DNA from: Alphaproteobacteria bacterium
GTDB taxonomy: Bacteria; Pseudomonadota; Alphaproteobacteria; Rickettsiales; SXRF01
Direction of reading: 5' to 3'
Assembly (NCBI GenBank): GCA_025360345.1
Contig: JANYCJ010000137.1
Coordinates: 768-64,767 of the forward strand
Length of the DNA stretch: 64,000 nucleotides
Made by a program: the position numbers and the translations under genes. Below, piece by piece: positions 6,043 to 39,480 of the stretch. Within the stretch, counting starts at the first letter, position 1, and each line of letters opens with the position of its first letter. Under the pieces are notes generated by a model, which was given only the letters and a program-made list of their open reading frames with translations, did no database searches and was not told the DNA's origin.

Positions 6043-6053
6043 GGGCGTTTCCT

Positions 6054-7736: not shown

Positions 7737-7739
7737 GGG

Positions 7740-9961: not shown

Positions 9962-9965
9962 CCCT

Positions 9966-11072: not shown

Positions 11073-12019
11073 CCCCTCCCCTGCTCTCCATTATCGTGCC
11101 GGTTTATTATAATGCGGACTCGCTCAATGAGTTATTTGAGCGGCTGACTGCGCTTGAGAGCGAGCTTGCGGCGCGGGATGCGCGGATGGAGCTGATTTTC
11201 GTGGATGACGGCTCGGGCGACGATTCGTTCAAGGTGTTGCGCGGCCTGCAGGCGCGGAGGCCGGGAACGAAGATCATCAAGCTTACGCGCAATTTCGGCG
11301 GGGTTGCCAGCAGCTGGTCGGGCTTTCCTTACGCCACGGGCGACTGCGTGGCAGTGCTGGCGGCAGATTTACAAGACCCGCCGGAGCAGATATTGCCGAT
11401 GTTCGAGGCATGGAAAGAAGGGCACAAGCTAGTGTTTTCGCACCGGCGCACGCGGCACGACCCGTGGGTATCAAAGATGCTGGCGGGATTTTATTACCAA
11501 TTGCTCAACAGGCTGGTGGTGAAAGATTTCCCACAGGGCGGGGCGGATATGATTTTGATGGATAAATCCTATATTCCCTATGTACTGGGGGCGCAGCGGG
11601 GCGTAAATTATTCGGTGTACCTGGTGTGGCTGGGGTTTGAGGCCAAGCTGTTTCCCTATGACCGGCAGGAGCGCAAGCACGGCAAGTCGCGTTGGTCTTT
11701 CCGTAAAAAATTCCTGTATTTCCTCGATACTATCACCGGGTTTACCGCCACGCCGCTGCGGCTGATTTCACTGGTGGGGCTGGTGGTGTCGTTTATCTGC
11801 CTTGCTTACGGGATCAAGCTGATCGCATGGTCTATGATTAACGGGGTGGAGGTTCCGGGCTTTGTGACGCTGGCGGTGCTGATAAGTTTTTCGACGAGCG
11901 TGATCGTGACCATGCTCAGCATTATCGGGGAATATCTGTGGCGGATTTTCGAGATCGTGAGTAAGCACCCCAAGTCGGTGGTGGAAAAGGCCTATCTTGG
12001 GGATGGGGACGAGGGCTGA
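11069..12019 (+). CDS. Family-2 glycosyltransferase of the polyprenyl-phosphate sugar transferase type (ArnC/GtrB/Dpm1-like)
   Basis: 316 aa. Motifs: LSIIVPVYYNADSL, FVDDGSGDDS, AADLQDPPE. Two C-terminal transmembrane helices (…LISLVGLVVSFICLAYGIKLI… and …FVTLAVLISFSTSVIVTMLSII…) are typical of this subgroup. Confidence 0.85.
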   Translation: MTPPLLSIIVPVYYNADSLNELFERLTALESELAARDARMELIFVDDGSGDDSFKVLRGLQARRPGTKIIKLTRNFGGVASSWSGFPYATGDCVAVLAADLQDPPEQILPMFEAWKEGHKLVFSHRRTRHDPWVSKMLAGFYYQLLNRLVVKDFPQGGADMILMDKSYIPYVLGAQRGVNYSVYLVWLGFEAKLFPYDRQERKHGKSRWSFRKKFLYFLDTITGFTATPLRLISLVGLVVSFICLAYGIKLIAWSMINGVEVPGFVTLAVLISFSTSVIVTMLSIIGEYLWRIFEIVSKHPKSVVEKAYLGDGDEG

Positions 12020-19521: not shown

Positions 19522-22257
19522 ATGGGCCAACCCAGCAGCCTGCCAAAAGAACCGCCGCTAAACCCTACCGATTTCGGATCGGTGTTCCGGGCTGCACCCG
19601 GTATGTACCTGCTTCTGCTGCCGGATGCGCCTAAGTATACCATTATTTCCGCAAGCGAAGCTTTTTCGCAGGCGATGCTGGTTAACGGCGCGGATATCGA
19701 ATCCAAAGGTATGTTCGATGTGTTTTTCCCTGAGGAAGCCAGTGAAAAGCCGGTCTCTATGGCGCTGCGCTCTTCGCTGCAACAGGTGCTGCACGGGCTG
19801 AAATCGCATGAGATGGAAGTGCAGAAATACGATTTGCACCGCAAGACCAGCAGTGGCACGGTGATAGAGGAAAAATACTGGAGCCCGCTGAATACGCCGG
19901 TGTTCGACATAGACGGAAAGCTGCAATACATCCTGCACCGCGTGCTCGACGTGACTGAGAAAATGACACTGGAAAAAGAGCGTGAGCGGTTTTTTACGCT
20001 GGGCACGGATATGCTGGTGGTGGCAGGCTATGATGGGTATTTCAAAAAAGTGAACCCCGCGTGGGAAGAAACGCTGGGCTGGACGCAGGAAGAAATGCTT
20101 AGCAGGCCGTGGATTGATTTTGTGCACCCCGATGATGTGCAGGCCACCCATGACGCCAAGGACAAGCTGGAAGCCAATATTCCCATCAAGAATTTTGAAA
20201 ACCGTTACCGCTGCAAAGACGGCAACTACCGCTGGCTCAGCTGGAAGACACATCCCTACCCGTTGGAAAAGCTGATTTACGGCGGGGCGACAGATATTAC
20301 AGAGCGCAAGAAGACCGAAGAGTCGCTACGCGCCAGCGAAAGAAAGTTCCGCCAGCTGGCCAATGCCATGCCGCAGGTGGTGTGGACCGCGATGCCCGAC
20401 GGGCAGCTGAATTACGTTAACGAACGCTGCTTCGAGTATTCCGGCACGCTGCGCACGGAAAATAACACCGTGGACTGGGCACCCATTATCCACCCTGAGG
20501 ATTTGCAGCATACGCTTTTCGTATGGAGCAACTGTGTGGCGTCGGGCAAGCCGTACGAAGTGCTCCAGCGCATCTTCCACGCGGCCAGCGGACACTACCG
20601 CTGGAACCTGACCAGGGCGCTGCCCGTGCACGACGAACTGGGCAACGTGACCAAATGGTATGGCACCAATACGGATATTGAAGACCAAAAAAGTACGGAA
20701 GACGCCTTACGCAAAAGTGAGCAATTCAACCAGAGCATTATCGACAGCAGCCCGGACTGCATTAAAGTGCTGGATATGGACGGCCATCTGCTTTCCATGA
20801 ATGAGGAAGGCTGCCGACAGATGGAGGTGGATGATTTCTCGGTCTGCATTAATAAACCGTGGATCGGCTTCTGGGACGGGGTGGAAAGGGCTGCTGCGGA
20901 ACAGGCGCTGCAGGCTGCGCGCAGAGGGGAAAAGGGTTTTTTCCAGGGTTTCTGCGCCACCATGAAAGGCACGCCGCGCTGGTGGGAAGTGATCGTAGCG
21001 CCGATACGGGGCAACGATGGAAAAACGGTGCAGATCTTATCCGTTTCACGCGATATCACCGAGCGCAAGAAGCTGGAAGATGCGACAAGGGACGCGCGGG
21101 AGCTGGCAGAAGCGGCAAATATCGCCAAGAGCGAGTTCCTTGCCAATATGAGCCATGAAATCCGCACACCGATGAACGCGGTGATCGGGCTGGCCAATAT
21201 CCTTGCCATGAGTCAGCCGTTATCGGCGCGGCAGAAAGAATACATCCAGACGTTGCAGATGTCGGCAGACAGCCTGCTTGCGCTGATTAACGACTTGCTC
21301 GATATTTCCAAGATCGAGGCACGCTCGATCGAGCTTGAGCATATTCCGTTCAACCTGAAGCAACTGCTGAACGAAGTGATTAGCATGATGTCTATGCGCG
21401 CTAAGGAAAAGGGACTTGAATTCAGCGTGCTGGGCGATTGCAGCCCGGATTATGTGGTAGTGGGCGACCCCACGCGGTTGCGCCAGATTTTGCTCAACCT
21501 TTGCAGCAACGCCATTAAATTTACGGAAAAAGGTGGGGTTTATGTGAGCATTGACTGCCACGCATCGGGGACGCAGGGTGTGGAAAATGTGTCTATCGCG
21601 GTGCGCGATAGCGGCATTGGTATTTCTCCCGAGCACCAGGAATCCATTTTCCATAAATTTATCCAGGCGGATTCAAGCATCACCCGCAAATATGGCGGGA
21701 CAGGGCTAGGGCTGGCCATTACCAAGACGCTCACTGAAATCATGGGCGGAACAATCTGGCTGACCAGCGCGGTGGGCAAAGGCTCCACCTTTACCGTGAA
21801 ACTGCCGATGAGGGTGGGCGGCGGCGAGGTGCAGGCCGAGGCGAATGTGCCCTTCGCCGCCGAGGCGTTTACCAAGCAAAGCTTCCGCGTGCTGCTGGTG
21901 GAGGATTATGCGGCCAATGTACTGGTGGCGGGAAGCTACCTTGAGCAATTCGGCTATGCTTATGACGTGGTGGATAATGGTTATGACGCGGTGGAAAAGG
22001 CCAAGTCTGGACAATATCTGGCCATATTGATGGATGTGCAAATGCATGGCATTAACGGGTTTGAGACGACACGGCTGATACGGGCGCATGAAAAATCAAC
22101 CGGGATGCCGCGGGTGCCGATCCTCGGCATGACCGCACATGCGCTGATGGGCGACCGGGAACGATGCCTCGAGGCAGACATGGACGATTACCTATCCAAG
22201 CCTTATAACCCCACGGAGCTGGAGCGAAAGCTGGCGGCTTACCGTGAAAAAAACTAG
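19522..22257 (+). CDS. Hybrid sensor histidine kinase (multiple PAS, HisKA-HATPase, C-terminal REC)
   Basis: 911 aa. H-box: [19 protein letters not shown]/G boxes: [19 protein letters not shown] and [23 protein letters not shown]…[11 protein letters not shown]…SKP. Confidence 0.95.
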   Translation: [911 protein letters not shown]

Positions 22258-22757
22258 CCCTCTTTTGCCGCTTTAAGGGCTGCTTCCGCCCGGACGAGAC
22301 CGATCTGGTCAATATTACCTTTGCTATCCACCAGCTGGTTTGCAGTAACGGCGCCGACAAGGGCGGCCACTTCGCGCTTTACTTTTTCGACATCGGTGGT
22401 GAGTTCGCTTACTGTGGCGCCGCCCCCTCCCCCGCTTTTCGGCGGTGGGGGTGGTGGCGGAGGCGGTGGCAGCGGGGCCGCGTTTTTATCCCCGGGTTTC
22501 GCGGGCTGGCCAGACGGGGGCTGTGCACGCGTGGCGGGAGTGCCTGCGGTTGCTGGGGAGAGAGTTTGCGCATCGGCTATAGATTGCGCGGGGGCCGTAA
22601 GATCCAGCTGCACAGCGGGGCCATGGGTGTCGCCCGTGGGTGCGGAGGCGGCGGGCGGGACGGTGGCGGCCTGTTTGGCGGCGGCTTCTTCAAGTTGCTG
22701 CAGGAGCGCGGTGGCTGCCTGGGTGGTGAGAGTGGTGGGTGGTGTGATACTGCTCAT
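22254..22757 (-). CDS. Hypothetical Ala/Pro/Thr-rich protein with poly-Pro and poly-Gly tracts and a helical C-terminal domain
   Basis: 167 aa. The sequence …NAAPLPPPPPPPPPPKSGGGGGATVSELTTDVEKVKREVAALVGAV… has an AAAGG element about 10 nt upstream of the ATG. The opposite-strand ORF 22321..22788 looks like an artefact. No family was recognised. Confidence 0.45.
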   Translation of the reverse strand: MSSITPPTTLTTQAATALLQQLEEAAAKQAATVPPAASAPTGDTHGPAVQLDLTAPAQSIADAQTLSPATAGTPATRAQPPSGQPAKPGDKNAAPLPPPPPPPPPPKSGGGGGATVSELTTDVEKVKREVAALVGAVTANQLVDSKGNIDQIGLVRAEAALKAAKEG

Positions 22758-22890: not shown

Positions 22891-24456
22891 TTATTCGGGC
22901 ATTACGTTGGCCAGCAGTGAGGTGACCTCTTCTAACTTCACAGGTTTGGTTAGGTGGTGGTTGAAGCCCGCCTCCTTTGCATCCCGGCGGTCTTTTTCCT
23001 GTCCCCAGCCGGTCTGGGCGATCATGACGGTTCTGGCGAAGCGCGGATCTTTGCGGAGGGTGCGGCACACTTCATAGCCGTTCATGCCGGGCAGGCCTAT
23101 GTCGAGCAGGATGACGTCGGGGTTCATATCCTGCGCTACTTTCACAGCCTCGATACCATCATGGGCGAGTATAGGCTGGTAGCCGATCAGCTCCAGCATC
23201 CAGCCGGTGGTTTTGGCGGAGGCGATATTATCATCCACGACAAGGACGCGCAGTGAGTGGTTTTCCCCGGTGGCGGGGGCGGCGGGCTGCGGGGCCGCGG
23301 GATGAGCGTGCATCTGCCCGGCCAGCGGCAGGCGGAAAGTGAAAATACTGCCTTTGCCTAGGCCTTGGCTTTCGGCAATGATGGCCCCGCCATGCATTTC
23401 CACCAGCCGCTTGACCAGCGCAAGGCCGATGCCGAGGCCGCCCTGCGAGCGTTCGAGGCTGCGGCCTACCTGCGTGAAAAGCTCGAACACTTTGGGCAGC
23501 ATGTCTGCGGGAATGCCCAGACCATTATCGGTGACGGAGACGATGACATCACTATCTTCCATATGGGCGGTCAGGTTTATCTTGCCGCCTTCGGGGGTAT
23601 ATTTAGCCGCGTTGTTGAGGAGATTGCTGATAATCTGGGAGAGGCGGGTGAGGTCGGCATCAAGCCAGATGGGGGTTTCGGGCACGTCCATGGTGAAGCT
23701 GTGCTTTCCGGCTTCGATCAGGGGAGTGCTGGCCTCCAATGCAGCCTGAATAGCGGATTGCAAGGTAATGGCGTCTTTGCGCAGGTCAATCTTGCCCTGG
23801 CTCACGCGCGAGACGTCGAGCAGGTCGTCGATAAGGCGGACGAGGTGGTTGAGCTGGCGATCCATCATGCCGCGCACCTCGTCGGACGTTTCGCCGGTGG
23901 GCTGCATTCGCAGCACCTGAAGGCCGTTGCGGATGGGGGCGAGCGGGTTCCTGAGCTCATGGGCGAGGGTTGCGAGGAATTCGTCCTTGCGGTGATCCGC
24001 TTCGCGCAGGGCATCGGCATACTGGCGCAGCTCGTCGCGCTGCTGGGCAAGCTGCTGCTGCTGGCGGTTCAACTCAAAAAACACCCCGGCCTTGCTGCGC
24101 AGGATATCCGGCTCGATGGGTTTATGAATGAAGTCCACGGCGCCGGCTTCATAACCGCGGAAACGGCGCTGGCGGTCAGCGCTGCCAGCGGTGAGGAAAA
24201 TGATGGGCACGCGGCGGGTGCGCTCGGTGCCGCGCATGAGTTCGGCCAGTTCAAAACCATCCATCCCGGGCATTTGCACGTCCAGCAAGGCAAGCGCCAC
24301 ATCGTATTTCAGCAATAGCTCCAGCCCTTCCCTGCCGGAGCGGGCCTTAAGCAGGACGAGGCCGTCGCGGCGCAGCAGCGCTTCAAGGGAAAGCAGGTTT
24401 TCCTCAAGGTCGTCTACCAGCAGAAAATAAACAGGCTGGGGCGTGGTGGCGGTCAT
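22891..24456 (-). CDS. Hybrid histidine kinase, REC-HisKA-HATPase-REC
   Basis: Start taken at MTATTPQPVYFLLVDD (ATGA overlap with the cheB stop). H-box: FLATLAHELRNPLAPI. G boxes: DNGLGI and GGLGIGLAL. The C-terminal REC is VLVVDDNIASA…LDIGLPGMNGY…TKP. Confidence 0.9.
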   Translation of the reverse strand: MTATTPQPVYFLLVDDLEENLLSLEALLRRDGLVLLKARSGREGLELLLKYDVALALLDVQMPGMDGFELAELMRGTERTRRVPIIFLTAGSADRQRRFRGYEAGAVDFIHKPIEPDILRSKAGVFFELNRQQQQLAQQRDELRQYADALREADHRKDEFLATLAHELRNPLAPIRNGLQVLRMQPTGETSDEVRGMMDRQLNHLVRLIDDLLDVSRVSQGKIDLRKDAITLQSAIQAALEASTPLIEAGKHSFTMDVPETPIWLDADLTRLSQIISNLLNNAAKYTPEGGKINLTAHMEDSDVIVSVTDNGLGIPADMLPKVFELFTQVGRSLERSQGGLGIGLALVKRLVEMHGGAIIAESQGLGKGSIFTFRLPLAGQMHAHPAAPQPAAPATGENHSLRVLVVDDNIASAKTTGWMLELIGYQPILAHDGIEAVKVAQDMNPDVILLDIGLPGMNGYEVCRTLRKDPRFARTVMIAQTGWGQEKDRRDAKEAGFNHHLTKPVKLEEVTSLLANVMPE

Positions 24457-25022
24457 GATGCTTCTACTTTCTGCAGATATGCTGCGATTTCCGCAAGACT
24501 GAGGCGGAGCGCCGTAGGACATGCCTTCAGGGCGGCCTCAGGCATGGGGGTTGACTGGGCGGTGGCGGGGTCCTGCACCAGGGCAGTGCCGCCTGCCGCC
24601 ACAATGGCTTTCAGGCCTTTTGCGCCGTCTTCATTGGCGCCGCTTAACACGATGCCGATAAGCGACTCACCGTAAGCGTCGGCAGCGGTTTCAAAAAGTA
24701 CATCAATTGCGGGACGGGAAAATAATACAGGCTCTTCGCTGGACAGTGACAACGACTGGTTTTTTTCTACCAGAAGATGGTAATCGGGCGGGGCGAAGTA
24801 GACAGAGGCTGGTTCTATGGCCACTTTGTCCTCAGCTTCAATGACCTTTACCTTGCACTTGTATTGAAAGAGGTCTGCGAGGATGCTTTTCTTGTCGGGA
24901 GGGACATGCACCACCACCATGACTGGCAAGGGGAAATCACCGGGGAGCGCGGGAAGGATGGCCGTAAGCGCTTCGACCGCGCCGGCGGAGGCTCCGATAA
25001 CAACAGCACGGGCAACGGTCAT
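24453..25022 (-). CDS. cheB: CheB-type protein-glutamate methylesterase, catalytic domain only (no REC)
   Basis: 189 aa. The sequence VVIGASAGAVEAL…VVVHVPP…SRPAIDVLFETAA…IVLSGANEDGAKGL carries the Ser-His-Asp esterase core. It begins directly with the catalytic domain. Confidence 0.9.
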   Translation of the reverse strand: MTVARAVVIGASAGAVEALTAILPALPGDFPLPVMVVVHVPPDKKSILADLFQYKCKVKVIEAEDKVAIEPASVYFAPPDYHLLVEKNQSLSLSSEEPVLFSRPAIDVLFETAADAYGESLIGIVLSGANEDGAKGLKAIVAAGGTALVQDPATAQSTPMPEAALKACPTALRLSLAEIAAYLQKVEAS

Positions 25023-25849
25023 TTGCTTCCCTTTTTCTGATAGAGGCGCTCCTCGCGGGAGAATTCGCTGAAATCATCGGCATTGGCGCTGAAGCGCAGG
25101 CTTTCCTTGCTACCAAGGCCGAGAAACCATTTGCGGATGAGGGAATCGCTGAACAGGCCAATAGCGCGGTCCTGCAATTCGCGGTCAAAATATATCAGGA
25201 CGTTGCGGCAGGAGATGAGATGCATTTCAGCGAAGACCGCGTCGCTGGCGAGGCTGTGGTCGGAGAACACGACACGCCTGCGCAGGGATTTATCGAAGGT
25301 GGCGTGGCCGTAGGCGGCAGTATAGTAATCGGAGAGCGACGATTTGCCGCCGGATTTCTGGTGATTTGCGGTGAAAAGCTGGATGCGGTCAAGATCGTAA
25401 ACGCCGGATTCAGCCTTGCGCAGGGCTTCGGTATTAATGTCGGTGGCGTAAAACATGGTGCGGTCTTCGAGCCCCTCTTCGCGGAAAAGAATGGCGAATG
25501 AATAGAGCTCTTCCCCGGTGGAGCAGCCCGCAACCCATATTTTGAGCGAAGGATAGGTGCGCAGATGGGGAACCACGCGCTCGCGGATGGTTTTGAAATA
25601 CTGCGGATCGCGGAAAAGCTCGCTGACCTGCACGGTGAGATAAGAGAGTAGTTCGGTAAAAATGGCGGGCTCGTGCAGCACGCGGTCCTGCAACTGCGAA
25701 TAGCTGCGGCAGCCGAATTTTTCCCGGGCAAGAGAGAGGCGGCGCTTGACCGAGGCCATAGAATAACCACGGAAATCATAGTGATACTTCTGGAAAAGGG
25801 CTTCCAGAAGCAGCTTCAGCTCCATATCATCGTTACGGTTATCCAACAC
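25019..25849 (-). CDS. cheR: CheR-type protein-glutamate O-methyltransferase
   Basis: 276 aa. Motifs: FRDPQYFKTIRERVVPHL, KIWVAGCSTGEELYSFAILF and ATDINTEALRKAESGVY. The gene overlaps cheB by 4 nt. Confidence 0.92.
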   Translation of the reverse strand: MLDNRNDDMELKLLLEALFQKYHYDFRGYSMASVKRRLSLAREKFGCRSYSQLQDRVLHEPAIFTELLSYLTVQVSELFRDPQYFKTIRERVVPHLRTYPSLKIWVAGCSTGEELYSFAILFREEGLEDRTMFYATDINTEALRKAESGVYDLDRIQLFTANHQKSGGKSSLSDYYTAAYGHATFDKSLRRRVVFSDHSLASDAVFAEMHLISCRNVLIYFDRELQDRAIGLFSDSLIRKWFLGLGSKESLRFSANADDFSEFSREERLYQKKGSK

Positions 25850-25858
25850 GGCTGCACC

Positions 25859-28800
25859 TCACCGTGGCATCCATACGCGGACGAGCGAAAGCAGCTTTTC
25901 CACATCCAGTGGCTTGGCCATATAGTCGTTTGCCCCCGCCTCCAGGCAGCGGTCCTGGTCGTCTTTCATGGCCTTGGCGGTGAGCATGATGACGGGCAGT
26001 TTTTTCCATTCTGGGCGCTTGCGGATTTCGCGAGTGGCAGTGAGGCCGTCCATTTCCGGCATCATGACATCCATCAGTACGAGGTCGATGGTCTTGTCGG
26101 GTGAGTCCATGCTGCTTTGAAGGAAGTCTAGCGCCTCGCGGCCATTGCGGGCAATTTCCACGATGGCGCCGCGCGGCTCGAAAATAGAGGTGACGGCGTA
26201 GACGTTTCGCACATCATCTTCGACCACTAGTATGCGGCGATTTTCCAATATGGCGTCGCGGTTGCGGGCCTGCTCCAACATGCGCTGCTGCTCGGCGGGA
26301 AGCTCGGCCACCACCTGATGCAGGAAGAGCGTGACTTCGTCGAGCAGGCGCTCGGGCGATTTGGCACCTTTGATGATGATGGACTTGGAATAGCGGCGCA
26401 GGCGCTGCTCCTGCTCTGCAGAAAGTTCACGCCCGGTATATACAATGACGGGGGGGAAGGAATAAGCGTCTTCACGGCTCAGGGTTTCGAGCAGCTCGTA
26501 GCCCGAGGCGTCGGGCAGGGAAAGGTCGAGCACCATGCAGTCGAACGTTTGTTCCTTTAGCCGTGCGAGCGTTTCGCTTACCGTGCCCACGCCCACCGTT
26601 TGCACATCATGGGAGGCGAGCAGGCGGCGGACGCTATCTTGCTGCACGGGATCATCTTCCACGATCAGCACACGGCGCATACGCTGCGATAAGCGGGTTT
26701 CCAGCTTCCGGAATGTATCGGCGAGGTCTTCGCGCTTGACGGGCTTTAGCATGTAACCCACGGCGCCGAGCGAGAGGGCGGTCTGCGCATAATCGCCAGC
26801 GGAGACGACATGCACGGGGATGTGGCGGGTGCGGGCGTCGTGTTTGAGGCGGTCGAGCACAGAGAGGCCTGAATTGTCGGGCAGGCCAACATCGAGCACC
26901 ACGGCGCTGGGCAGGTATTGCTGGGCTAGGGCCAGGGCTTCTTCAGCGGTGGTGGCGACAATGCACTGGAAGTCCAGCTCATGGGCAAGGTCGTTTAGTA
27001 TGCGGGCGAAAGGCACATCATCTTCTACGACGAGGATGACGCGGCTGTTGCCAGTGAGTTTCTCGCGGTCATCTTCCACACGATGGCGGCGCATGTAGTT
27101 TGCGGGCATGGCGGGTTTTTCCACGGGGGGCATTTCCACGGGCTCGAAGGGGGGGCGCTGGGCGACCAGCTCCGGATCGAAATCTTTCGGGATGGTGAGG
27201 GTAAAGTGGCTGCCCTGCCCCGGCGTGCTGGTAAGCTCGATCTGGCCGCCGAGCAGGCGGGAAAGCTGGCGCGAAATGGACAGGCCCAGCCCGGTGCCGC
27301 CATATTTGCGGCTGATGGTGCCATCTGCCTGGCGGAAGGCTTCGAAAATTGCCTGTTGCTGCTCCAGCGCAATGCCGATGCCGGTGTCACTCACGGTGAA
27401 GGCGACCTTATCCCCCGGGAGGAACCTGGCGATGATTTCCACGCTGCCCTGCTCGGTGAATTTCAGGGCATTGGATATAAGGTTCTTTAATACTTGCTCA
27501 AGGCGCTGGCGGTCGGTGTCGATATAAGTGGGGGAGCCGGGGGCGGCGGTTGCTTTGAACACGAGGCCTTTTTGTTTCGCCATCGGCTCGAAGCTGTGGG
27601 TGAGGTCTTTCATCAGGCGTTCCAGAGAAACCTGCTCGGGGCGGATTTCCATGTGCCCGGCTTCAATCTTGGAGAGGTCGAGGATGTCATTGATAAGCGA
27701 GAGGAGGTCATTGCCGGAGGACTGGATGGTCTGGGCGAACTTAACTTGCTCCTCGGACAGGTTTCCTGCCGGGTTATCGGCCAATAACTTGGCGAGGATA
27801 AGGGAGGAGTTGAGCGGGGTGCGAAGCTCATGGCTCATATTGGCGAGGAAGTCTGATTTATACTGGCTGGCCTGTTCCAGCTCGCTGGCCTTAGCCTGCA
27901 CGGCAGCTTTTGCGCGGACCAGATCATCCTTCTGGTTTTCGAGGATCTGGGCGGTTTCTTCGAGCTGGGAGTTGGTCTGCTCCATTTCGGCCTGCTGTAA
28001 TTCAAGGCGCGCCTGCGATTCTTTGAGCGCCCTGCTTTGCTCTTCGAGCTCTTCATTGGATACGCGCAGTTCTTCGCTTTGGGTTTGCAGCTCTTCGGAC
28101 TGGCGCTGGGTTTCTTCCAGCAGGTTCTGGAGGTGGGCACGGTAATTGGCGGATTTCACTGCCGTGGCGATGGTTGTGTTGACGCTATTGAGCAGTTCCA
28201 TGCTGCGCTCATCGACAGGATTCAGGAAGCCGATTTCCATTAATGCATTCACTTCGCCGTCCATGGCGATGGGAGCTACGATGAGGTAGCGCGGCTTATG
28301 ATGGCCCATGCCGCTGCCGATGGTCAGGTAGCCTTCGGGCACATCCCGCAGCAGGAAGGTTTTCTTTTCTTTCACCGCCTGCCCCAGTAGGCCCTCGGCG
28401 GTGTCAAAACGATCAGGCGTGCGGCCGGAAGAGCTGATGCCGTAGCTTGCGACCCGGCGGAAGTCCTTGCCTTCTTTTACATATAGCAATGCCGCGCTGG
28501 CGCTACAGTACCCGCAGATAAAGCTCAGGATGTTGTCGCCGAGTGGTTCCATGCGTTGCTCACCCACCATGGCAGTGCTTAAGCCCACCTGGCCAGATTG
28601 CATCCATTCCTGACGCTTGCGGGTGAGCAAATTGCGGCGCACAAGATGCGCTACCGCACCGGAGAGCAACACTCCTAAAAACCCGGTGAGCAAGCCGCTG
28701 ACGATGGCGATATGGTAGGCCGCCTGCATTTCCACAAGGCGCTTGGAGCGCAGCGAGGATTCTTCATCGCGCATGGCAGCAATCTGGGTACGGACAATGT

Positions 28801-29275
28801 CCATTTCCGCTTTGCCGCGGTCAGTGATGACTAGATCGCGGGCGAGGTTAAAACCTTTGGTTCGGCGCAGCTCAATGGATTCGGCAAGCTCAGCCAGCTT
28901 GGCGTGTATATGATTGCGAAGGGCAGGCACGCGTTGCTGCTGGGCCTCGTTATCCTTTGTGAGGGAATCAATCGCAGCGATCGTGTTATCGAGTTCGGTG
29001 ATGGCGATGTTATAGGGGGTGAGGTATTTTTCATCCCCGGTAATCAGGAAGCCGCGCTGACCGGTTTCGGCATCCTTGGTCTGGGAAATCAACTGCTCCA
29101 GCTTCAGTATCACCTCATGGGTGTGGGTCACCAAAGACGCATCGTTGCTGATAATGCGTATGTTCCAGTAGGATATAAACGAGCTGGCGACAAAAAACAA
29201 AACAACAGCCACCATGCCGAAAGTGATGGGGAGTTCGGGCTTGATATTACGTGGGCTGGCCTGATTTGCAGTCAT
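25859..29275 (-). CDS. Hybrid sensor kinase: TM-CHASE3-TM-GAF-coiled coil-HisKA-HATPase-REC-REC-REC
   Basis: 1138 aa. CHASE3 signature: VTHTHEVILKLEQL…DAETGQRGFLITGDEKYLTPY. A GAF-like segment follows. H-box: FLANMSHELRTPLNS. G boxes: DTGIGI and GGTGLGLSI. Three successive receiver domains are present (VLVVEDDVPFA…, VLIVEDDPVQQ…, ILVVEDDVRNV…). Confidence 0.93.
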   Translation of the reverse strand: MTANQASPRNIKPELPITFGMVAVVLFFVASSFISYWNIRIISNDASLVTHTHEVILKLEQLISQTKDAETGQRGFLITGDEKYLTPYNIAITELDNTIAAIDSLTKDNEAQQQRVPALRNHIHAKLAELAESIELRRTKGFNLARDLVITDRGKAEMDIVRTQIAAMRDEESSLRSKRLVEMQAAYHIAIVSGLLTGFLGVLLSGAVAHLVRRNLLTRKRQEWMQSGQVGLSTAMVGEQRMEPLGDNILSFICGYCSASAALLYVKEGKDFRRVASYGISSSGRTPDRFDTAEGLLGQAVKEKKTFLLRDVPEGYLTIGSGMGHHKPRYLIVAPIAMDGEVNALMEIGFLNPVDERSMELLNSVNTTIATAVKSANYRAHLQNLLEETQRQSEELQTQSEELRVSNEELEEQSRALKESQARLELQQAEMEQTNSQLEETAQILENQKDDLVRAKAAVQAKASELEQASQYKSDFLANMSHELRTPLNSSLILAKLLADNPAGNLSEEQVKFAQTIQSSGNDLLSLINDILDLSKIEAGHMEIRPEQVSLERLMKDLTHSFEPMAKQKGLVFKATAAPGSPTYIDTDRQRLEQVLKNLISNALKFTEQGSVEIIARFLPGDKVAFTVSDTGIGIALEQQQAIFEAFRQADGTISRKYGGTGLGLSISRQLSRLLGGQIELTSTPGQGSHFTLTIPKDFDPELVAQRPPFEPVEMPPVEKPAMPANYMRRHRVEDDREKLTGNSRVILVVEDDVPFARILNDLAHELDFQCIVATTAEEALALAQQYLPSAVVLDVGLPDNSGLSVLDRLKHDARTRHIPVHVVSAGDYAQTALSLGAVGYMLKPVKREDLADTFRKLETRLSQRMRRVLIVEDDPVQQDSVRRLLASHDVQTVGVGTVSETLARLKEQTFDCMVLDLSLPDASGYELLETLSREDAYSFPPVIVYTGRELSAEQEQRLRRYSKSIIIKGAKSPERLLDEVTLFLHQVVAELPAEQQRMLEQARNRDAILENRRILVVEDDVRNVYAVTSIFEPRGAIVEIARNGREALDFLQSSMDSPDKTIDLVLMDVMMPEMDGLTATREIRKRPEWKKLPVIMLTAKAMKDDQDRCLEAGANDYMAKPLDVEKLLSLVRVWMPR

Positions 29276-29457: not shown

Positions 29458-29955
29458 TTAAAGATCGTAGGCGTGGGGCTGGGCAGGATTTTTGCGCATC
29501 TGCTCCGCCCAGGTGGCGGGTGCTTCGGGATGCAGCTTTTCATGATGGCGGTCAAAATGCTGCATGGCACGGGCGGTATCCACCCCTCCCCTCAGCCCGG
29601 CATCGTAGCGGGTGGGAATGCGGACAAGCTGAATGGCCGTGGTAAGGCCTGTGGTTGCGAGCAACGTGATGAGCGCGGGTTTCGCGAAGGATTTTTCAGT
29701 ACTCATTTTAATGGCTACGCCCACAGCGGAGGCGAGGAGAAAGGATTCTCCCGTCCAACGGATAGGCTCATATACGTCAAGCTGGCGGCCGATGGCGCCG
29801 CGACGATGAATTTCACGGTCTATGCGGTGGCTGAGTTCGGGATCGGGCGCGCCATCGGCGTGCTTACCAAATTCCTCGGACCATTGCTTCGCGCGGCGAT
29901 CTACATGTTTGTCGAGATGGCGGTTGATAATGCCAGCGATGAAATTTTCCGTCAT
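29458..29955 (-). CDS. Hypothetical protein with central hydrophobic segments
   Basis: 165-aa ORF with normal composition. It has two hydrophobic stretches (…FLLASAVGVAIKM… and …ALITLLATTGLTTAIQLV…). No family was recognised. Confidence 0.5.
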   Translation of the reverse strand: MTENFIAGIINRHLDKHVDRRAKQWSEEFGKHADGAPDPELSHRIDREIHRRGAIGRQLDVYEPIRWTGESFLLASAVGVAIKMSTEKSFAKPALITLLATTGLTTAIQLVRIPTRYDAGLRGGVDTARAMQHFDRHHEKLHPEAPATWAEQMRKNPAQPHAYDL

Positions 29956-31353: not shown

Positions 31354-32547
31354 ATGTCCAAGAGTACGCTGCCAAGCCCTAAAGAACGCGCCGGTATATT
31401 AAATGAAAGACGCAACCTGAAAATGGCGCGCTCTGCACATGCCTATGTGCGCGGCAATACGCTTAATTTTTATGAATGGCTGGAATCGGTGAGTGGCAAA
31501 GCGGTGCCGCAAGGCCCGGCAGTATGGATCTGCGGGGATTGCCATATGAGCAACCTGGGGCCGCTGGCCGACACCAAGGGCCATATTCGTATCCAGATAC
31601 GCGACCTAGACCAGACGGTGATCGGCAACCCGGCGCATGACCTGATCCGGCTGGGACTTTCGCTGACAAGCGCGGCGCGGGGTTCGGATTTGTCGGGCAT
31701 TATCACGGTGAGAATGTGCGAGCAGCTGATGGAAGGCTATGAGCAGGCCTTTGCTAAGGATGCGCAGGACGAGATTGAGCTGCCTGAAGCAGTGGAAAAG
31801 GCGATGAAGACGGCGATCAAGCGCAAGTGGAAGCACCTGGCGCGGGAGCGCATCAAGGATGAGCGGCCCAGCATCCCGCTTGGGAACACGTTCTGGCCGC
31901 TTTCCAAAGATGAGCGCGAGGAAATCGTGGCGCTGTTCACAGAGGAAAAAGTGCGCAGGCTGGTGACCTCGCTGCGCTCGCGCGATAGTGACGCCAGCGT
32001 GGAAGTGCTGGACGCGGCCTACTGGGTGAAGGGATGCAGCTCACTCGGCAATTTACGCTACGCAGTGCTGCTGGGCGTGGGCGAAAAGGGCGAGGAGCAA
32101 TGCCTGATAGATATCAAGGAGGCGGTGAAGGCCGTGGCGCCGGCCTATGACAACGTGAAAATGCCGCGCAACAACGCCGAGCGGGTGGTGGAAGGCGCGT
32201 GGCATCTTTCCCCGGCGCTGGGCGAGCGGATGCTGGCGGCGAGCCTGCAAGGGCGAAGCGTGTTCATGAGGGAATTGCTACCGCAGGATCTAAAGCTGGA
32301 TATTGAGCACCTGACGCCGGATGAGGCCATGAAAGTCTCAAAATATTTGGGTGCAGTCGTGGGTAAGGCACATGCGCGCCAGATGGATGAAGAGACGCGC
32401 GCCGGCTGGCACAGGGAGCTGAACGCCAACCGCTCCAAAACGCTTAATGCCCCGAGCTGGTTATGGCGCAGCATCGTGGAACTGATCCTGAACCATGAGG
32501 GCGCTTATCTGGAACATTGCCGCAAATATGTGACGCTTGGCACTTAG
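31354..32547 (+). CDS. DUF2252-family protein
   Basis: About 397 aa from the ATG at 31354. The sequence …AHAYVRGNTLNFYEWL…VWICGDCHMSNLGP…IRDLDQTVIGNPAHDLIRLGLSL… matches my recollection of the DUF2252 core (CGD.H..N.G…D.D…DL.RL). Confidence 0.7.
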   Translation: MSKSTLPSPKERAGILNERRNLKMARSAHAYVRGNTLNFYEWLESVSGKAVPQGPAVWICGDCHMSNLGPLADTKGHIRIQIRDLDQTVIGNPAHDLIRLGLSLTSAARGSDLSGIITVRMCEQLMEGYEQAFAKDAQDEIELPEAVEKAMKTAIKRKWKHLARERIKDERPSIPLGNTFWPLSKDEREEIVALFTEEKVRRLVTSLRSRDSDASVEVLDAAYWVKGCSSLGNLRYAVLLGVGEKGEEQCLIDIKEAVKAVAPAYDNVKMPRNNAERVVEGAWHLSPALGERMLAASLQGRSVFMRELLPQDLKLDIEHLTPDEAMKVSKYLGAVVGKAHARQMDEETRAGWHRELNANRSKTLNAPSWLWRSIVELILNHEGAYLEHCRKYVTLGT

Positions 32548-35500
32548 GCCGGGGTGTTGAGCAGGAGAGCGATTTTCTGCCGCAGCTCCTCGGGATTGAA
32601 GGGTTTTGCGATGTAATCGTCCATACCTACGCCGAGGCAGCGCTCACGGTCTCCTGACAAGGCATGGGCAGTCATGCCAATGATGGGCAGATGATGCCCC
32701 TGCCCTTGCTGTTTTTCCTGCTCGCGAATGAGGCGGGTGGCTTCTAGGCCGTTCATACCGTGCATCTGCACGTCCATGAGCACCATGGCGAAGGACTCTT
32801 TTTTAATTTTTTCCAATGCTTCCAAGCCATTATGCGCTACTTCGCAGCGATAGCCGAATTCTTCGAGGAAGGCGGTGGCGACCATGACATTAGGTGCGTA
32901 GTCCTCGACCAGCAGGATGCGGGGCAGCAGATGATGGGCATTACTATTTTCCCTGCCGGAAGTCTCTTCTATTTCGGCTTCGGGGCGCGCATCCACTACC
33001 TGCAGGGGCACGGTGATTGCAAAACGAGACCCTTTGCCGGAGGTGCTGGTGACACTGATTTCACCGCCCATGATCTCGACCAGCGTTTTGGAAATGGCAA
33101 GGCCAAGGCCTGTGCCGCCGTATTTACGGTTGATTGAGGTATCTGCCTGCACGAATTTGTGGAAGATAGTGCCCAGTTTAGCCGTGGGGATGCCGATGCC
33201 GGTATCTTCCACGATCATGGTTACGTTTTCGACAGTGGGCTCGGCGGTTGGCTCGCAGGTGAATGAGACCAGCACGCTGCCGTGCTCCGTGAATTTTATG
33301 GCATTGCTGCACAGGTTCATGATGACCTGGCGGATGCGGGTGGGGTCGCCCAGATAGGTGCGGCCTTCGATACAGTGGGCTTCGCTGCGGAAGGAAAGGT
33401 GTTTTTCACGGGCACGCACTGACATGATACTGATGACTTCATGCATGAGTTGGTCAAGGCTGAAGGGAATTTTTTCCAGCTCGACGCTGCGCGACTCGAT
33501 TTTTGAAATATCAAGCAGGTCATTGATGAGGGAGAGCAGCGAGTCCGCAGAGAGTTGCAAGGTGCTGATAAATTCGACCTGACGGGGGGTGAGAGGCTGG
33601 CTCAGGGAAAGGATGTTGGCCAGCCCGATCACGGCATTCATGGGAGTGCGTATTTCATGGCTCATGTTGGCGAGAAACTCTGTTTTGGCAATGTTAGCGG
33701 CTTCGGCCTGCAGTTTTGCTTCTACGTTGTCCTGAATGTCGGTACAGGTGCCATACCAGGTGGTAATGCAGCCCTGAGGGTCGCGGATGGGCACACCACG
33801 GGTTTTGAACCAGCGGTAGGCGCCATCATGCCTACGGATACGGTATTCAAGGTTATAGTCCGCCCTGCCCTGCACGGCATTGGTCCATGCCTGCATAACG
33901 ATGTCGCGGTCTTCGGGGTGCAGCCACTGCACCCATGCAAAACCGAGCAGGTTTTCTACCGGCTCGCCAGTATATTGCTGCCAGCGGGAATTCATATATT
34001 CGCACTGGCCGTCTGAGGCGCGGCAGGTCCAGAGCAATTGCGGCATGGCATCTGCGAGGTTGCGCCAGCGCTCTTCACTGGCCTGAAGTGCGATGGCAGT
34101 TTCGCGCTCAGCAGTGATATCTATACCTACGCCGGGGAAGCGCACCGGATTGCCATTTTCATCGAACTGCACTTCCCCGCGCACCGACAGCCAGCGCACC
34201 ACGCCCGGCTTGGGGATAACACGGTATTCATCTACGTAGCGGCCACCTTCTTTAAGCACCTTAGTAATATGGGTGCCGATGCGGTCATAGTCTTCAGGAT
34301 GAATGGATTTGACTACGCGGCCAAGCTCCACACCCTGCTTCGCCTGCTCCGCGGTCAGGCCAAACAGCGCGCCAAAGCGTTCATCGGCTGTGAAGCGGTC
34401 ATTGACCACATCCCAGTCCCAGATACCGAAATCATGGCTGGCGGCGAGCGCGAGGCGCTGACGCTCTTCGTTTTTCTTTATCGCCGCTTCCTGCGCGCGT
34501 GCCTCTGTAATATCACGGGTGGTGCCGGCCACGAATTCTACTTCACCCTCCTCGTTGAGCACCGGCACAAAAATGTAATCATAGATACGACGGCCATTGG
34601 TTCCCGCGAATGGAACCTCGCCGCGAATAGGCTTTTTGGTTTTGACCACGGTGTCTATTTCGTCGTGGTGCATCTGGACATGCCAAGGCTCATATCCTAA
34701 TTCGGGGAAGCCTTTGTTCGTTGCCTCGCCACGGGTTTTTCCAAACATGGCAAGCAGCGACTCATTCAGGTATACAAACTTGTAATTCAGGTCGAAAATA
34801 TAGACGAAGTCCGGGGTGCTGGAGAGAATGGTTTCATACAGGCGGCGCTGCTTTTCATTAGCCTGAACGAGGCGGCCATTTTCAAGGCCGATGGCGGCCT
34901 GGCTTGCGATGGCTTTAGCGATACGCTCGGAGCGCTCAGTAAAAATTCCAGGCTGCGAATGGCCAAAAAACAAGCCCCCCAGCACTTCGCCGCCTTTAGT
35001 TACCACCGGGACTGCGAGGTAGCTTTTGACCGGGATATGGCCCTCGGGCATACCATGATAGGGGCTGTTCTTGCCATAGCGGGGATCGGTTGTGATATCA
35101 TCCGAACGTACCACGCCGGTGCCGTCGAAGGTGGGCGCAAAAATCTGGGTTTTACGCGGCATCGGGAAATCGGCGAAAGCCTGCAGCGGCGCACCGGACA
35201 GGGTGTAGAGCATGTATGATTCGCCGGTGGCGTTCTGGCTATTGTAAAAGAATGCGCCAAACTCCGCCTTGGTAAGTTCGGTGGCGATGTCGGTGGCATG
35301 TTGGACAGGTTCATGAGGATTCGATATGCGTGAGAATGCCTGACCAGTCCGGTAAATGGCATCCAGCATTTCCATTTCTTCACGGCGCTGGCTTTCACTG
35401 CGCTTACGTTCGGTGACATCGAGCAAAGTGCCCATGAGCCTGCCGTTATGGCCGCCGAATTTTTGCACGCGCCCCCGGGCGCTTACGCAGTAAAGGCGCC

Positions 35501-36203
35501 CGTCCCGCTCAACACGGTACTCAATTTTCAATCCCAAATCCGAAGATTGCTCAAAAACTTCAAGAAACTGCAACTCCGCCTGTGTGCGGTCTTCTTTATA
35601 AATTTTTTCAAGGAATATCGCGAAGGTTATGTCTTGCCCCGCCGCAAGGCCCATAATTTCTGCGCTGCGTTCGGAGCAATAGAAACGTTTTGCCCCGGGT
35701 TCATAACTCCACACGCCCAACTGAGAAGCTTCGATGGCCAGGCGATATTCTTCCTGCTTTTCCTGCAGATTTTGACTCAGGCGGAAGCGTTCGATCGCAT
35801 TATACACGGTGCGGACGAGCGGCTCTGGCTGCATACTTTCCTTAGTAATATAATCCTGAGCACCCAGAAAAATGGCTTCATTCGCCACTTGATTGCTCAA
35901 CTCCTCGTCGAGGCCAGAACCGGTGAGCATGATGACAGGAAGCGGTATGGTGCCGCCGCGGACCTCTTTCAGTGCCTTGAGGAAGTCAATGCCGTTGCGC
36001 AACGGCATGTGCATATCAAGGATCAGACAGTCGGGCAGCGGGTTTTTCTGGAGCCAGGCTAGTCCCTCTTCAGCGGTACTGCACTCGTTGAACTGGTATT
36101 TCTGGAATTTATTGGAACGAAGCTTGCCACGCACTAATGCACGGTCATCGGGATTATCATCGACAAGTAAAACTTCAAGTACACGGCGTGAAAGAGCGTT
36201 CAT
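32544..36203 (-). CDS. Giant hybrid sensor kinase: REC-PAS-GAF-PAS(x3)-HisKA-HATPase-REC
   Basis: Start taken at MNALSRRVLEVLLVDD (ATGA overlap with the upstream RR stop). H-box: FLANMSHEIRTPMNAVIG. G boxes: DTGIGI and GGTGLGLAI. The C-terminal REC is ILLVEDYAPNV…MDVQMHGMNGL…AKP. Confidence 0.93.
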   Translation of the reverse strand: MNALSRRVLEVLLVDDNPDDRALVRGKLRSNKFQKYQFNECSTAEEGLAWLQKNPLPDCLILDMHMPLRNGIDFLKALKEVRGGTIPLPVIMLTGSGLDEELSNQVANEAIFLGAQDYITKESMQPEPLVRTVYNAIERFRLSQNLQEKQEEYRLAIEASQLGVWSYEPGAKRFYCSERSAEIMGLAAGQDITFAIFLEKIYKEDRTQAELQFLEVFEQSSDLGLKIEYRVERDGRLYCVSARGRVQKFGGHNGRLMGTLLDVTERKRSESQRREEMEMLDAIYRTGQAFSRISNPHEPVQHATDIATELTKAEFGAFFYNSQNATGESYMLYTLSGAPLQAFADFPMPRKTQIFAPTFDGTGVVRSDDITTDPRYGKNSPYHGMPEGHIPVKSYLAVPVVTKGGEVLGGLFFGHSQPGIFTERSERIAKAIASQAAIGLENGRLVQANEKQRRLYETILSSTPDFVYIFDLNYKFVYLNESLLAMFGKTRGEATNKGFPELGYEPWHVQMHHDEIDTVVKTKKPIRGEVPFAGTNGRRIYDYIFVPVLNEEGEVEFVAGTTRDITEARAQEAAIKKNEERQRLALAASHDFGIWDWDVVNDRFTADERFGALFGLTAEQAKQGVELGRVVKSIHPEDYDRIGTHITKVLKEGGRYVDEYRVIPKPGVVRWLSVRGEVQFDENGNPVRFPGVGIDITAERETAIALQASEERWRNLADAMPQLLWTCRASDGQCEYMNSRWQQYTGEPVENLLGFAWVQWLHPEDRDIVMQAWTNAVQGRADYNLEYRIRRHDGAYRWFKTRGVPIRDPQGCITTWYGTCTDIQDNVEAKLQAEAANIAKTEFLANMSHEIRTPMNAVIGLANILSLSQPLTPRQVEFISTLQLSADSLLSLINDLLDISKIESRSVELEKIPFSLDQLMHEVISIMSVRAREKHLSFRSEAHCIEGRTYLGDPTRIRQVIMNLCSNAIKFTEHGSVLVSFTCEPTAEPTVENVTMIVEDTGIGIPTAKLGTIFHKFVQADTSINRKYGGTGLGLAISKTLVEIMGGEISVTSTSGKGSRFAITVPLQVVDARPEAEIEETSGRENSNAHHLLPRILLVEDYAPNVMVATAFLEEFGYRCEVAHNGLEALEKIKKESFAMVLMDVQMHGMNGLEATRLIREQEKQQGQGHHLPIIGMTAHALSGDRERCLGVGMDDYIAKPFNPEELRQKIALLLNTPA

Positions 36204-36622
36204 GCACCCGCCATAATGGTCACGGCATCGCACAGCCAATAGGTGGCGATGCGTTGGACAGTTTCATGGAAAACCGGAGTTTCCAGAGGCTTTACATGGA
36301 ACGCACTCGCACCTGCGCGGTAGGAATTAAGGATGTCGTTAGGATTGGTGGAGGTGGTAAGCACCACTAGCGGCACAAGATTGAGCTGCGGATGGTTCTT
36401 GAATTTTTTGATAAGGCTCATGCCTCCTTCGCCCGGGATGTTGAGGTCCAGAAGTACGAAGGCGGCTTTTTCGTTATTGGCCTCTAGCCAGCGGCAGGCC
36501 GCTTCGGTGTCGGTCAGGTGTACCACGTTATTTTTTAGGCCAAGCTTTTTCAGCCCGTGGCAAATCATATCGAAATCTTCTTCATTATCCTCGACCACCA
36601 GTAACTTTAGATCCCTAAGCAT
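36200..36622 (-). CDS. Single-domain response regulator (phytochrome-associated, Rcp-like)
   Basis: 140 aa with the REC motifs LLVVEDNEEDF…LLDLNIPGEGG…VVLTTS…HVKP. The gene overlaps bphP by 8 nt. Confidence 0.9.
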   Translation of the reverse strand: MLRDLKLLVVEDNEEDFDMICHGLKKLGLKNNVVHLTDTEAACRWLEANNEKAAFVLLDLNIPGEGGMSLIKKFKNHPQLNLVPLVVLTTSTNPNDILNSYRAGASAFHVKPLETPVFHETVQRIATYWLCDAVTIMAGA

Positions 36623-38882: not shown

Positions 38883-38883
38883 A

Positions 38884-39480
38884 TCAGCGTTTTCCTACCC
38901 AGTTGCGAAATGCCTCGAACATCATGCTGGCAGCCTCCACACATGCATCCTGTTCGGGTTGAGTGGTGATATTGCGGCTTAGCTCGCTGCTGAATTCGCG
39001 CCAGTTGGGGCCGATATCCTTGCCTGCGCCAATGAAAAAGCTGGCTCCGCTGGAGGCATCCCAGCCTTTTTTTGCAGCTTCCCGGGCGATAATCTGGCCG
39101 CCAAGGGATGCGCCTTCAATCACATAGCGGCAACCCCACCAGCTGGAAGGAGATTCCATGGAAGGAATTGCCGCGCATTGCGGAAGCGCACGAATATTTT
39201 CCATGTTCATGCCCAAGGATAGCAGGTCGGCCATCAAGAGCGGTGTTTTGCTGATGCACTGCACATCCCCGGGTGCATGGGCTGAAAAGGCTTTGTCGGC
39301 GGGCGCATAAAAGCCATAGAAACGGCTTAGCATGTCGCGATACCGTTCTAAGGAAGACATATTTCTCAGTATATCCACCTGCTGTTCTGTGGCCTCGTGC
39401 TGGGCAGCGGTTTCTGCGCGGAGGCGGAACATGATATCGGGGCCGTTATCTGGTTTTGGCTTGGCAGCGGGCGGCGTCAT
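38884..39480 (-). CDS. bphO: Haem oxygenase (biliverdin-producing)
   Basis: 198 aa. The sequence …LRAETAAQHEATEQ…FYGFYAP… is haem-oxygenase-like. Its stop lies 1 nt before the bphP start. Confidence 0.8.
   Translation of the reverse strand: MTPPAAKPKPDNGPDIMFRLRAETAAQHEATEQQVDILRNMSSLERYRDMLSRFYGFYAPADKAFSAHAPGDVQCISKTPLLMADLLSLGMNMENIRALPQCAAIPSMESPSSWWGCRYVIEGASLGGQIIAREAAKKGWDASSGASFFIGAGKDIGPNWREFSSELSRNITTQPEQDACVEAASMMFEAFRNWVGKR

Follow-up and report, generated by a model that had tools for sequence, protein, structure and literature searches.

Sensory adaptation by covalent modification is considered a hallmark of chemoreceptor arrays. Among sensor kinases, CheR-type methylation has been described in Bacillus cereus, where RsbM, co-transcribed with the kinase RsbK (CHASE3-HAMP-GAF-S-helix-HK-REC; REC, receiver domain), methylates the RsbK S-helix both in vitro and in vivo (PMC4574943). 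The genomic association of RsbK with CheR had been noted earlier by de Been and colleagues, and the RsbK/RsbM study put the number of RsbK-like kinases at 127, in 10 phyla (PMC4574943). RsbM methylation holds sigma-B signaling off before stress and has no paired esterase (PMC4574943; PMC12848376); the methylation demonstrated so far is one-way and esterase-free. The partner of RsbK and RsbM is the REC-PP2C protein RsbY, and their system includes no second kinase of the kind described below (PMC4574943). Here we analyze a 64,000-nucleotide stretch of contig JANYCJ010000137.1 from an alphaproteobacterium (the window), in which four minus-strand genes at 22891-29275 (the quartet) place a CheR-like and a CheB-like enzyme between two hybrid histidine kinases, HK1 and HK2. 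On sequence grounds, the four genes are one signaling unit that is organized like the Pseudomonas cfcABCD and bmsA-cheR-cheB-HK clusters and related to RsbK-RsbM, and the S-helix of HK1 is probably the substrate of the CheR/CheB pair.

The quartet is an already named cluster type, and this locus is an ordinary further member of it. In Pseudomonas putida, the cluster is cfcABCDE (PP_3761-PP_3757), the kinase CfcA activates the diguanylate cyclase CfcR, and CfcA H496 is needed for CfcR activity (PMC4951495). The CHASE3 domain of CfcA has been linked to salt sensing (PMC10950880). In Pseudomonas alkylphenolica, the kinase is named BmsA, and in Pseudomonas, genes for CheR, CheB and a hybrid kinase come after its orthologs (PMC8175716). 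The first four genes of these clusters agree with ours in both content and order (a hybrid kinase with CHASE3 and GAF domains, cheR, cheB and a protein with an N-terminal REC), and the phospho-accepting histidine lies at a similar position (CfcA H496, HK1 H482), a likeness of architecture and gene order. A fifth gene encoding a single REC, which we take cfcE to be, is present in some of the 80 related loci described below (in Asticcacaulis); the window differs in having neither this fifth gene nor a linked GGDEF response regulator. The known outputs of the Pseudomonas systems are CfcR-dependent cyclic di-GMP synthesis, biofilm formation, motility and the salt response. An earlier note on this DNA knew of no mechanistic description for gene sets of this kind. 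That statement is outdated, RsbK/RsbM having been described since 2012/2015 and the Pseudomonas cfcABCDE and bmsA clusters having been named and studied genetically. The literature we searched contained no Gram-negative paper on CheR/CheB action upon the kinase and, for CheR-type methylation of kinases, nothing beyond RsbK/RsbM; the papers on HmrABCX of Caulobacter and on A. tumefaciens chemotaxis proved to be unrelated.

The first gene of the quartet, HK1 (25859-29275, minus strand; 1,138 residues), encodes a hybrid histidine kinase of the CfcA/BmsA/RsbK type, as assigned from its Pfam domains and from orthologs of ~1,140-1,200 residues in 80 of 80 loci. After a 9-nucleotide spacer comes cheR (25019-25849, minus strand; 276 residues from a GTG start, with an alternative ATG at 25825), the product of which carries CheR_N and CheR domains and is a predicted CfcB/RsbM-like protein-glutamate O-methyltransferase dependent on S-adenosylmethionine (SAM). 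The third gene, cheB (24453-25022, minus strand; 189 residues), encodes a predicted CfcC-like methylesterase/deamidase with a CheB_methylest domain only and without a REC. The last, HK2 (22891-24456, minus strand; 521 residues), encodes a CfcD-like REC-HisKA-HATPase-REC protein by Pfam, a ‘hybrid response regulator’ that has no hydrophobic segments and is predicted to be soluble. The genes cheR and cheB share a 4-nucleotide ATGA overlap, as do cheB and HK2; the HK2 open reading frame (ORF) extends to 24522, and the ATG at 24456 that overlaps the cheB stop codon is its likely start. Reading frames, Pfam domains and junctions agree throughout with the four tightly packed genes, domain orders and spacers given in the earlier note. 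A promoter and terminator scan gave matches at a frequency that did not exceed that in shuffled sequence.

This arrangement is conserved as a unit. A scan of one genome per species with a CheB alignment confirmed at least 573 relatives among 600 pattern matches, of which we took the best 80 with 10-kb flanks; none of these comes from Pseudomonas, and all counts over 80 loci refer to this set. The order of a CHASE3-GAF-coil-HK kinase with three RECs, cheR, a short cheB and a REC-first gene is kept in all 80; the earlier note had supposed that such sets are annotated in many genomes. The loci span at least six phyla and come from Alphaproteobacteria, Beta/Gammaproteobacteria, Planctomycetota, Verrucomicrobiota, Armatimonadota and Nitrospirota, with hosts that include Rhizobium, Brucella/Ochrobactrum, Asticcacaulis, Brevundimonas, sphingomonads, Azospirillum, Singulisphaera and Fimbriiglobus, as well as Schlesneria, Haloferula, Oleiharenicola, Fimbriimonas, Nitrospira, Dyella, Bordetella and Aquabacterium. 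Gene calls made independently, with Pfam hits already assigned, show the quartet in two further contigs as well, in the closest relative, the proteins of which are 80-85% identical to ours, and in Azorhizobium. Such identity across phyla suggests that the quartet moves horizontally as a cassette. All-against-all clustering of the flanking ORFs of the 80 loci revealed no further conserved neighbor, except shadow ORFs within the unit and the single-REC gene of Asticcacaulis.

We searched the window for other components of a chemosensory pathway. The Pfam set comprised 68 ORFs, namely the greedily chosen, non-overlapping longest ORFs of at least 100 residues plus a few overlapping alternates, and none of the 68 contains an MCPsignal, CheW, Hpt or H-kinase_dim domain. 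A tblastn probe consisting of the Tsr signaling domain matched no gene for a methyl-accepting chemotaxis protein (MCP) within the 64-kb window; the probe works, because it recovered MCP genes in four control loci. The absence of MCP, CheA and CheW asserted in the earlier note therefore holds for the 68 scanned ORFs and the Tsr search. The scanned ORFs likewise include no GGDEF gene and no PP2C, STAS or sigB-type gene by Pfam. MCP genes are present in just 4 of the 80 locus flanks, far from the quartet. In Metarhizobium album (L047, 421-4377), the quartet has a canonical REC-CheB and MCP-like genes at a distance of 5-9 kb; a chemotaxis CheB and a kinase-linked short CheB can thus coexist in one genome.

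The two modification enzymes are divergent paralogs of the chemotaxis proteins with intact catalytic residues. CheR matches CheR_N (6e-10) and CheR (9e-35) in Pfam, and its best match in the Protein Data Bank is Bacillus subtilis CheR (5FTW, 1.7e-28). Its motifs are kept in 80 orthologs, including the arginine of ELFRD (R80), the GCSTGEE and ATD (D137) SAM motifs and the tyrosine of NVLIYF (Y220). CheB matches PF01339 (CheB_methylest, 4.5e-55) with no REC, and it can be aligned with residues 157-334 of Salmonella CheB (1A2O) as well as with the separate catalytic-domain structures 1CHD and 3SFT. Across 22 diverse homologs, S12, H39 and D132 are invariant; we take these to be the catalytic triad by correspondence with S164, H190 and D286 of Salmonella CheB. 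Against the NCBIfam chemotaxis models, CheR scores 70 bits (cut-off, 435) and CheB 141 (cut-off, 293). The short CheB family comprises at least 7,805 clusters at 90% identity (E ≤ 1e-10), and the 120 matches listed are all 183-207 residues long with PF01339 only. A CheB-CheR fusion suspected from a 790-residue ORF in one locus (L004) was rejected, the ORF being over-extended and ending in a canonical CheB. The earlier note proposed that the five receivers of the operon govern CheB in trans, by protein-protein contact; our observations lend this no support. A CheB without a REC is also the defining trait of the F3 chemotaxis class of Campylobacterota, and the isolated CheB catalytic domain is constitutively active.

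HK1 consists, in order, of a transmembrane segment, a CHASE3 domain, a second transmembrane segment, a GAF domain, a long coiled coil, HisKA and HATPase domains and three RECs, all encoded on the minus strand. The CHASE3 domain (residues 46-179; 28739-29140; PF05227, 1e-40) is predicted to be periplasmic because hydrophobic segments lie on both sides of it, at about residues 15-37 and 187-210. It is followed by a GAF domain of the GAF_2 family (residues 245-373; 28157-28543; PF13185, 3.4e-10), and Pfam gave no HAMP match in HK1. The HisKA/DHp domain (residues 473-540; 27656-27859; PF00512, 7e-20) carries the phospho-acceptor His482 (codon 27830-27832), which is invariant in 75 of 75 orthologs, and precedes an HATPase_c domain (residues 588-697; 27185-27514; PF02518, 3e-30). 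The three RECs (25871-27040; Response_reg, 2e-64 in three stretches) span residues ~746-860 (REC-A), ~868-985 (REC-B) and ~1014-1135 (REC-C), and their acceptor aspartates D795, D917 and D1069 are invariant in the orthologs. The protein ends in LVRVWMPR (last six codons at 25862-25879, minus strand), an exact tail that recurs in ~70 of 76 orthologs from several phyla. Some chemoreceptors tether CheR and CheB through an xWxxF pentapeptide; the conserved Trp-containing tail of HK1 loosely resembles this signal and may equally be the mere end of a well-conserved REC-C.

The segment that we propose as methyl-accepting is the S-helix, or coiled coil, at residues 374-470 of HK1 (27866-28156, minus strand), with a core at residues 386-448 (27932-28120). 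In the window sequence, the ~95 residues between the GAF domain and the H-box contain neither proline nor glycine. They are organized in heptads with leucine in column 1 (L396, L403, L410 ... L466), and the first four of these have Glu-Glu in columns 6-7 (387/388, 394/395, 401/402 and 408/409). Columns 2-3 then hold a further glutamate track (411/412, 425, 432, 439/440 and 446), and Asn407 and Asn435 take the other core position. Provided that the leucine and the column-5 residue form the a/d core, the EE pairs lie outside it. This 63-residue core contains 17 Glu, 12 Gln and 5 Lys/Arg. The triple EE-heptad occurs once in the six frames of the window, in HK1, and the four other kinases of the window lack the motif. 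Columns at least 95% identical among 72 full-length orthologs make up 60% of the S-helix core, 70% of the DHp, 41% of the ATPase domain, 32-46% of the RECs, 13% of CHASE3 and 7% of GAF. The S-helix is thus conserved like the catalytic center, which points to a surface read by other proteins. At residue 414 (codon 28034-28036), between the two glutamate tracks, 41 of 76 orthologs have Gly and 34 have Ser; a glycine at a core position in mid-coil may mark a hinge or stutter.

Homology to an RsbK-like kinase is a further line of evidence for the S-helix as a substrate. A search of PLSDB with residues 1-470 of HK1 matched 204 plasmid records, one of which carries an RsbK-like kinase on plasmid pBMB0231 of Bacillus thuringiensis YBT-1518 (L081, 6962-12587). 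That plasmid encodes a second sigB module, with the RsbK-like kinase, an RsbY-like REC-phosphatase, a STAS protein, RsbW and SigB, beside genes for general stress proteins; among the genes listed next to this module, none is for an RsbM-like methyltransferase. HK1 and the B. thuringiensis kinase are 35% identical over 212 residues of GAF and coil (E 1e-31) and 52% identical in the kinase core. Their S-helices (‘TEELQTQSEELQIQSEEL’ in B. thuringiensis, ‘SEELQTQSEELRVSNEEL’ in HK1) have EELQTQSEEL heptads in common, and their pre-H-box helices can be compared in the same way (...MTEELQTQSEELQIQSEELQAVNNQLEE... and ...QSEELQTQSEELRVSNEELEEQS..., respectively). The two S-helices are homologous by these comparisons. 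The HK1 coil is longer by exactly three heptads (21 residues), a difference that fits a continuous parallel coiled coil. In the B. thuringiensis paralog, the second glutamates of the first two EE pairs lie 66 and 59 residues before the phospho-accepting histidine. In RsbK, this histidine is H505, and the methylation sites were reportedly mapped by Chen et al. in 2012 to E439 and E446, at the same distances from it.

The quartet therefore resembles RsbK/RsbM in pairing a CHASE3-GAF-S-helix-HisKA-HATPase-REC kinase with an adjacent CheR-type methyltransferase and in a homologous S-helix, as compared through the B. thuringiensis RsbK-like paralog. The two systems differ in that HK1 has no detected HAMP and three RECs, where RsbK has one; in that the quartet has a dedicated REC-less CheB, where B. 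cereus has none for RsbK; and in that a REC-kinase takes the place of RsbY as the partner in all 80 loci, with no sigB/RsbV/RsbW context. With canonical chemosensory systems, the quartet shares the same two enzyme folds with their catalytic residues and a likely substrate that is an acidic, Gln/Glu-rich coiled coil with sites seven residues apart. Unlike those systems, it has no MCP, CheA or CheW, its CheB is missing the REC phosphorylated by CheA, a parallel coiled coil that runs into the DHp replaces an antiparallel four-helix bundle as the proposed substrate, and the site context is S/N-E-E-L-x-x-Q rather than the MCP consensus. In the Rhodospirillum centenum Che3 system, a hybrid kinase, CheA3, is reported to signal to an N-terminal-receiver kinase, CheS3, in an operon with CheR and CheB. 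Che3 has an MCP, CheW and a CheA-type kinase, whereas the upstream kinase of the quartet is a HisKA sensor with no MCP.

In each of the 80 loci, the fourth gene encodes an N-terminal REC and, after it, a kinase core, with an optional C-terminal REC. The core is of the HisKA/HATPase type in 65 of the loci and of the unrelated HWE/HisKA_2 type in 14. The key residues of HK2 itself are D59 in REC1, H166 in the H-box and D452 in REC2. Because the invariant columns of the fourth-gene alignment all fall within REC1 and the linker after it, REC1 is the portion that belongs to the unit. N-terminal-REC kinases have been described as phosphorylated by another histidine kinase (PMC9239204), and in P. putida the REC of CfcD is the closest paralog of the REC of CfcR, the demonstrated CfcA target (PMC4951495). 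Since REC1 is the conserved part, kinases of this form are phosphorylated by others and the CfcD and CfcR RECs are related, a relay from HK1 to REC1 of HK2 is the probable connection between the two kinases.

We infer from these comparisons that HK1 is the substrate, which of its glutamates are modified, that CheB reverses the modification and that HK1 phosphorylates REC1 of HK2. In the mechanism we propose, HK1 would be a dimeric membrane sensor, the periplasmic CHASE3 and cytoplasmic GAF domains of which feed a parallel coiled coil of ~95 residues (the S-helix) that continues into the His482-bearing DHp helix. The CheR-like enzyme, with SAM, would methyl-esterify exposed glutamates of the heptad-spaced EE pairs in this acidic helix, and the REC-less CheB-like enzyme would hydrolyze the esters and possibly deamidate neighboring glutamines. 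Charge neutralization would alter the packing of the coiled coil and so reset the kinase/phosphatase balance of HK1, and methylation would thereby amount to covalent gain or set-point control of a two-component sensor. The phosphoryl group from His482 would pass to the HK1 RECs and, most likely, to the invariant N-terminal REC of HK2, the kinase core of which would then act on a response regulator encoded elsewhere (CfcR, a diguanylate cyclase, being the CfcA output in P. putida).

The quartet might, more tentatively, be a self-contained adapting two-component system. Reversible CheR/CheB methylation of the S-helix of a HisKA kinase would then receive feedback through kinase conformation or through docking of the REC-less CheB on phosphorylated receivers, giving a chemotaxis-style memory and adaptation for a non-motility output in a mobile four-gene cassette present in at least six phyla. 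We consider a true feedback (adaptation) cycle doubtful on present grounds. If true, a CheR/CheB cycle acting on a histidine kinase would extend the adaptation principle to ordinary two-component signaling. The module is very common, and the literature searched characterizes its methyltransferase half alone, in Bacillus alone. Our comparison supplies an almost invariant 63-residue target with about ten candidate glutamates, shows that REC1 co-varies with the unit and provides natural CheB-less and CheR-less comparators. The proposal in the earlier note that methylation acts on one of the kinases is well supported by comparison, through the 80 of 80 conserved units without linked MCP genes, the EE helix and the homology to an RsbK-like kinase; the adaptation it also proposed went a step beyond the precedent, since the methylation in B. 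cereus is a standing repression with no paired esterase.

These natural variants fall into groups with and without the modification enzymes. Plasmids of Paracoccus (L083, 2668-8436), Sphingobium (L084, 5758-11580) and Ketogulonicigenium (L086, 5716-11490) carry a three-gene variant that comprises a cytoplasmic, CHASE3-less GAF-coil-HK kinase with three RECs, a CheR and a REC-first protein of ~610 residues, with no cheB annotated and the EE heptads kept. REC1 of the ~610-residue protein of Paracoccus is 63% identical to REC1 of HK2, and this protein contains no CheB segment. Multi-HAMP GAF kinases of Azospirillum (L085) and Mesorhizobium (L088) have no adjacent CheR; their helix is homologous and has lost the first glutamate in several EE pairs (AEL, ERL, SEL and TEL). 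Retention of the EE heptads with CheR and their degeneration without it is a suggestive pattern, drawn from few cases.

Several observations weigh against the S-helix of HK1 as the CheR/CheB substrate or against reversible methylation there. E/Q interchange is common at MCP methylation sites, and there is almost none at the glutamate positions of the S-helix in 76 orthologs. The EE sites also depart from the MCP consensus, in which small residues follow the Glu pair, and there is no similarity between the Tsr probe and the helix of HK1, for which we therefore make no claim of an MCP-like sequence. Its invariance could instead reflect REC docking or a signaling constraint. An HK1-like gene of Caballeronia (L082) with no adjacent cheR or cheB keeps the first half of the motif, so the motif alone is no proof of CheR dependence. 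Reversibility cannot be general in the family, because B. cereus and the three-gene variants work without CheB. In P. putida, other cfc mutants kept the CfcR-dependent crinkly phenotype, according to an unpublished statement (PMC4951495). Finally, support for the target is comparative.

The alternative that best survives also takes HK1 as the substrate. Methylation would impose a static repression, as proposed for RsbK, and CheB would set the steady-state level or mature Gln to Glu. This is a serious possibility, if not a probable one: RsbM keeps RsbK off before stress in B. cereus with no esterase, CheB-less three-gene variants exist, and the CheB of the quartet lacks a receiver by which kinase activity might act back on it. 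However, cheB is kept with an intact triad in all 80 quartet loci, which argues that turnover of the modification matters, and in chemotaxis feedback can arise through conformation-dependent availability of the substrate, independently of CheB phosphorylation.

The enzymes could instead act within the unit at a place other than the HK1 S-helix, either at the linker that joins REC1 of HK2 to its DHp (‘RQQQQLAQQRDEL’) or at a receiver domain. The linker is Q/E-rich and partly conserved (Q132, R140, D141 and L143 at ≥90%), and cheB overlaps the start of HK2 by 4 nucleotides. Yet the kinase part of the fourth gene is swapped for the unrelated HWE/HisKA_2 core in 14 of 80 loci, and HK2 contains no heptad EE series. 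The demonstrated precedent is methylation of the S-helix of a CHASE3-GAF kinase (PMC4574943), and RsbK/RsbM functions with a REC-PP2C partner and no HK2-like gene. A substrate within the unit other than the HK1 S-helix is accordingly improbable. Least probable of all is that CheR and CheB serve classical chemoreceptors encoded elsewhere, their place between the kinases reflecting shared regulation only: the flagellar genes of the window (fliP, flgB, flgC, fliE, fliR and flhB) imply that the organism is probably motile and probably has MCPs elsewhere, and a REC-less CheB functions in Campylobacterota chemotaxis, but across phyla, all 80 loci keep the pair joined to HK1 and the REC-kinase and have no MCP, CheA or CheW linked to it, both enzymes score far under the chemotaxis family cut-offs, and the Metarhizobium quartet genome has its separate canonical REC-CheB and MCP cluster nearby.

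The surroundings of the quartet are chromosomal, with recA, alaS, a flagellar export/rod cluster, a bacteriophytochrome operon and several further hybrid kinases in the window. RecA assigns the DNA to an uncultured alphaproteobacterium, its best named matches (84-90% identity) being metagenome-assembled genomes that carry the label Rickettsiales or Alphaproteobacteria. Two flanking ORFs have no family match: a Pro/Ala-rich one of 167 residues downstream (22254-22757, minus strand) and one of 165 residues upstream (29458-29955, minus strand). Both are kept in the closest relative (44% identity for the downstream ORF, 76% for the upstream one) and not conserved in the 80 wider loci. A PAS-PAS-HisKA-HATPase-REC hybrid kinase (19522-22257, plus strand) separates the quartet from the PMSR/DUF1223 genes. 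The kinase is missing at this point in the closest relative (L089, L090), where the PMSR/DUF1223 genes follow the quartet, and it therefore looks like an insertion here or a loss in the relative. The bacteriophytochrome operon (32544-39480, minus strand) comprises a heme oxygenase (38884-39480), a PAS_2-GAF-PHY-HisKA-HATPase bacteriophytochrome, BphP (36615-38882), a single REC (36200-36622) and a 1,231-residue GAF-PAS-PAS-HisKA-HATPase-REC-REC kinase (32544-36239). A polysaccharide-modification cluster at 3600-12019 encodes a TPR-sulfotransferase, a GNAT-like protein, a hexapeptide acyltransferase, an FdtA-like isomerase, a DegT aminotransferase and a family-2 glycosyltransferase.

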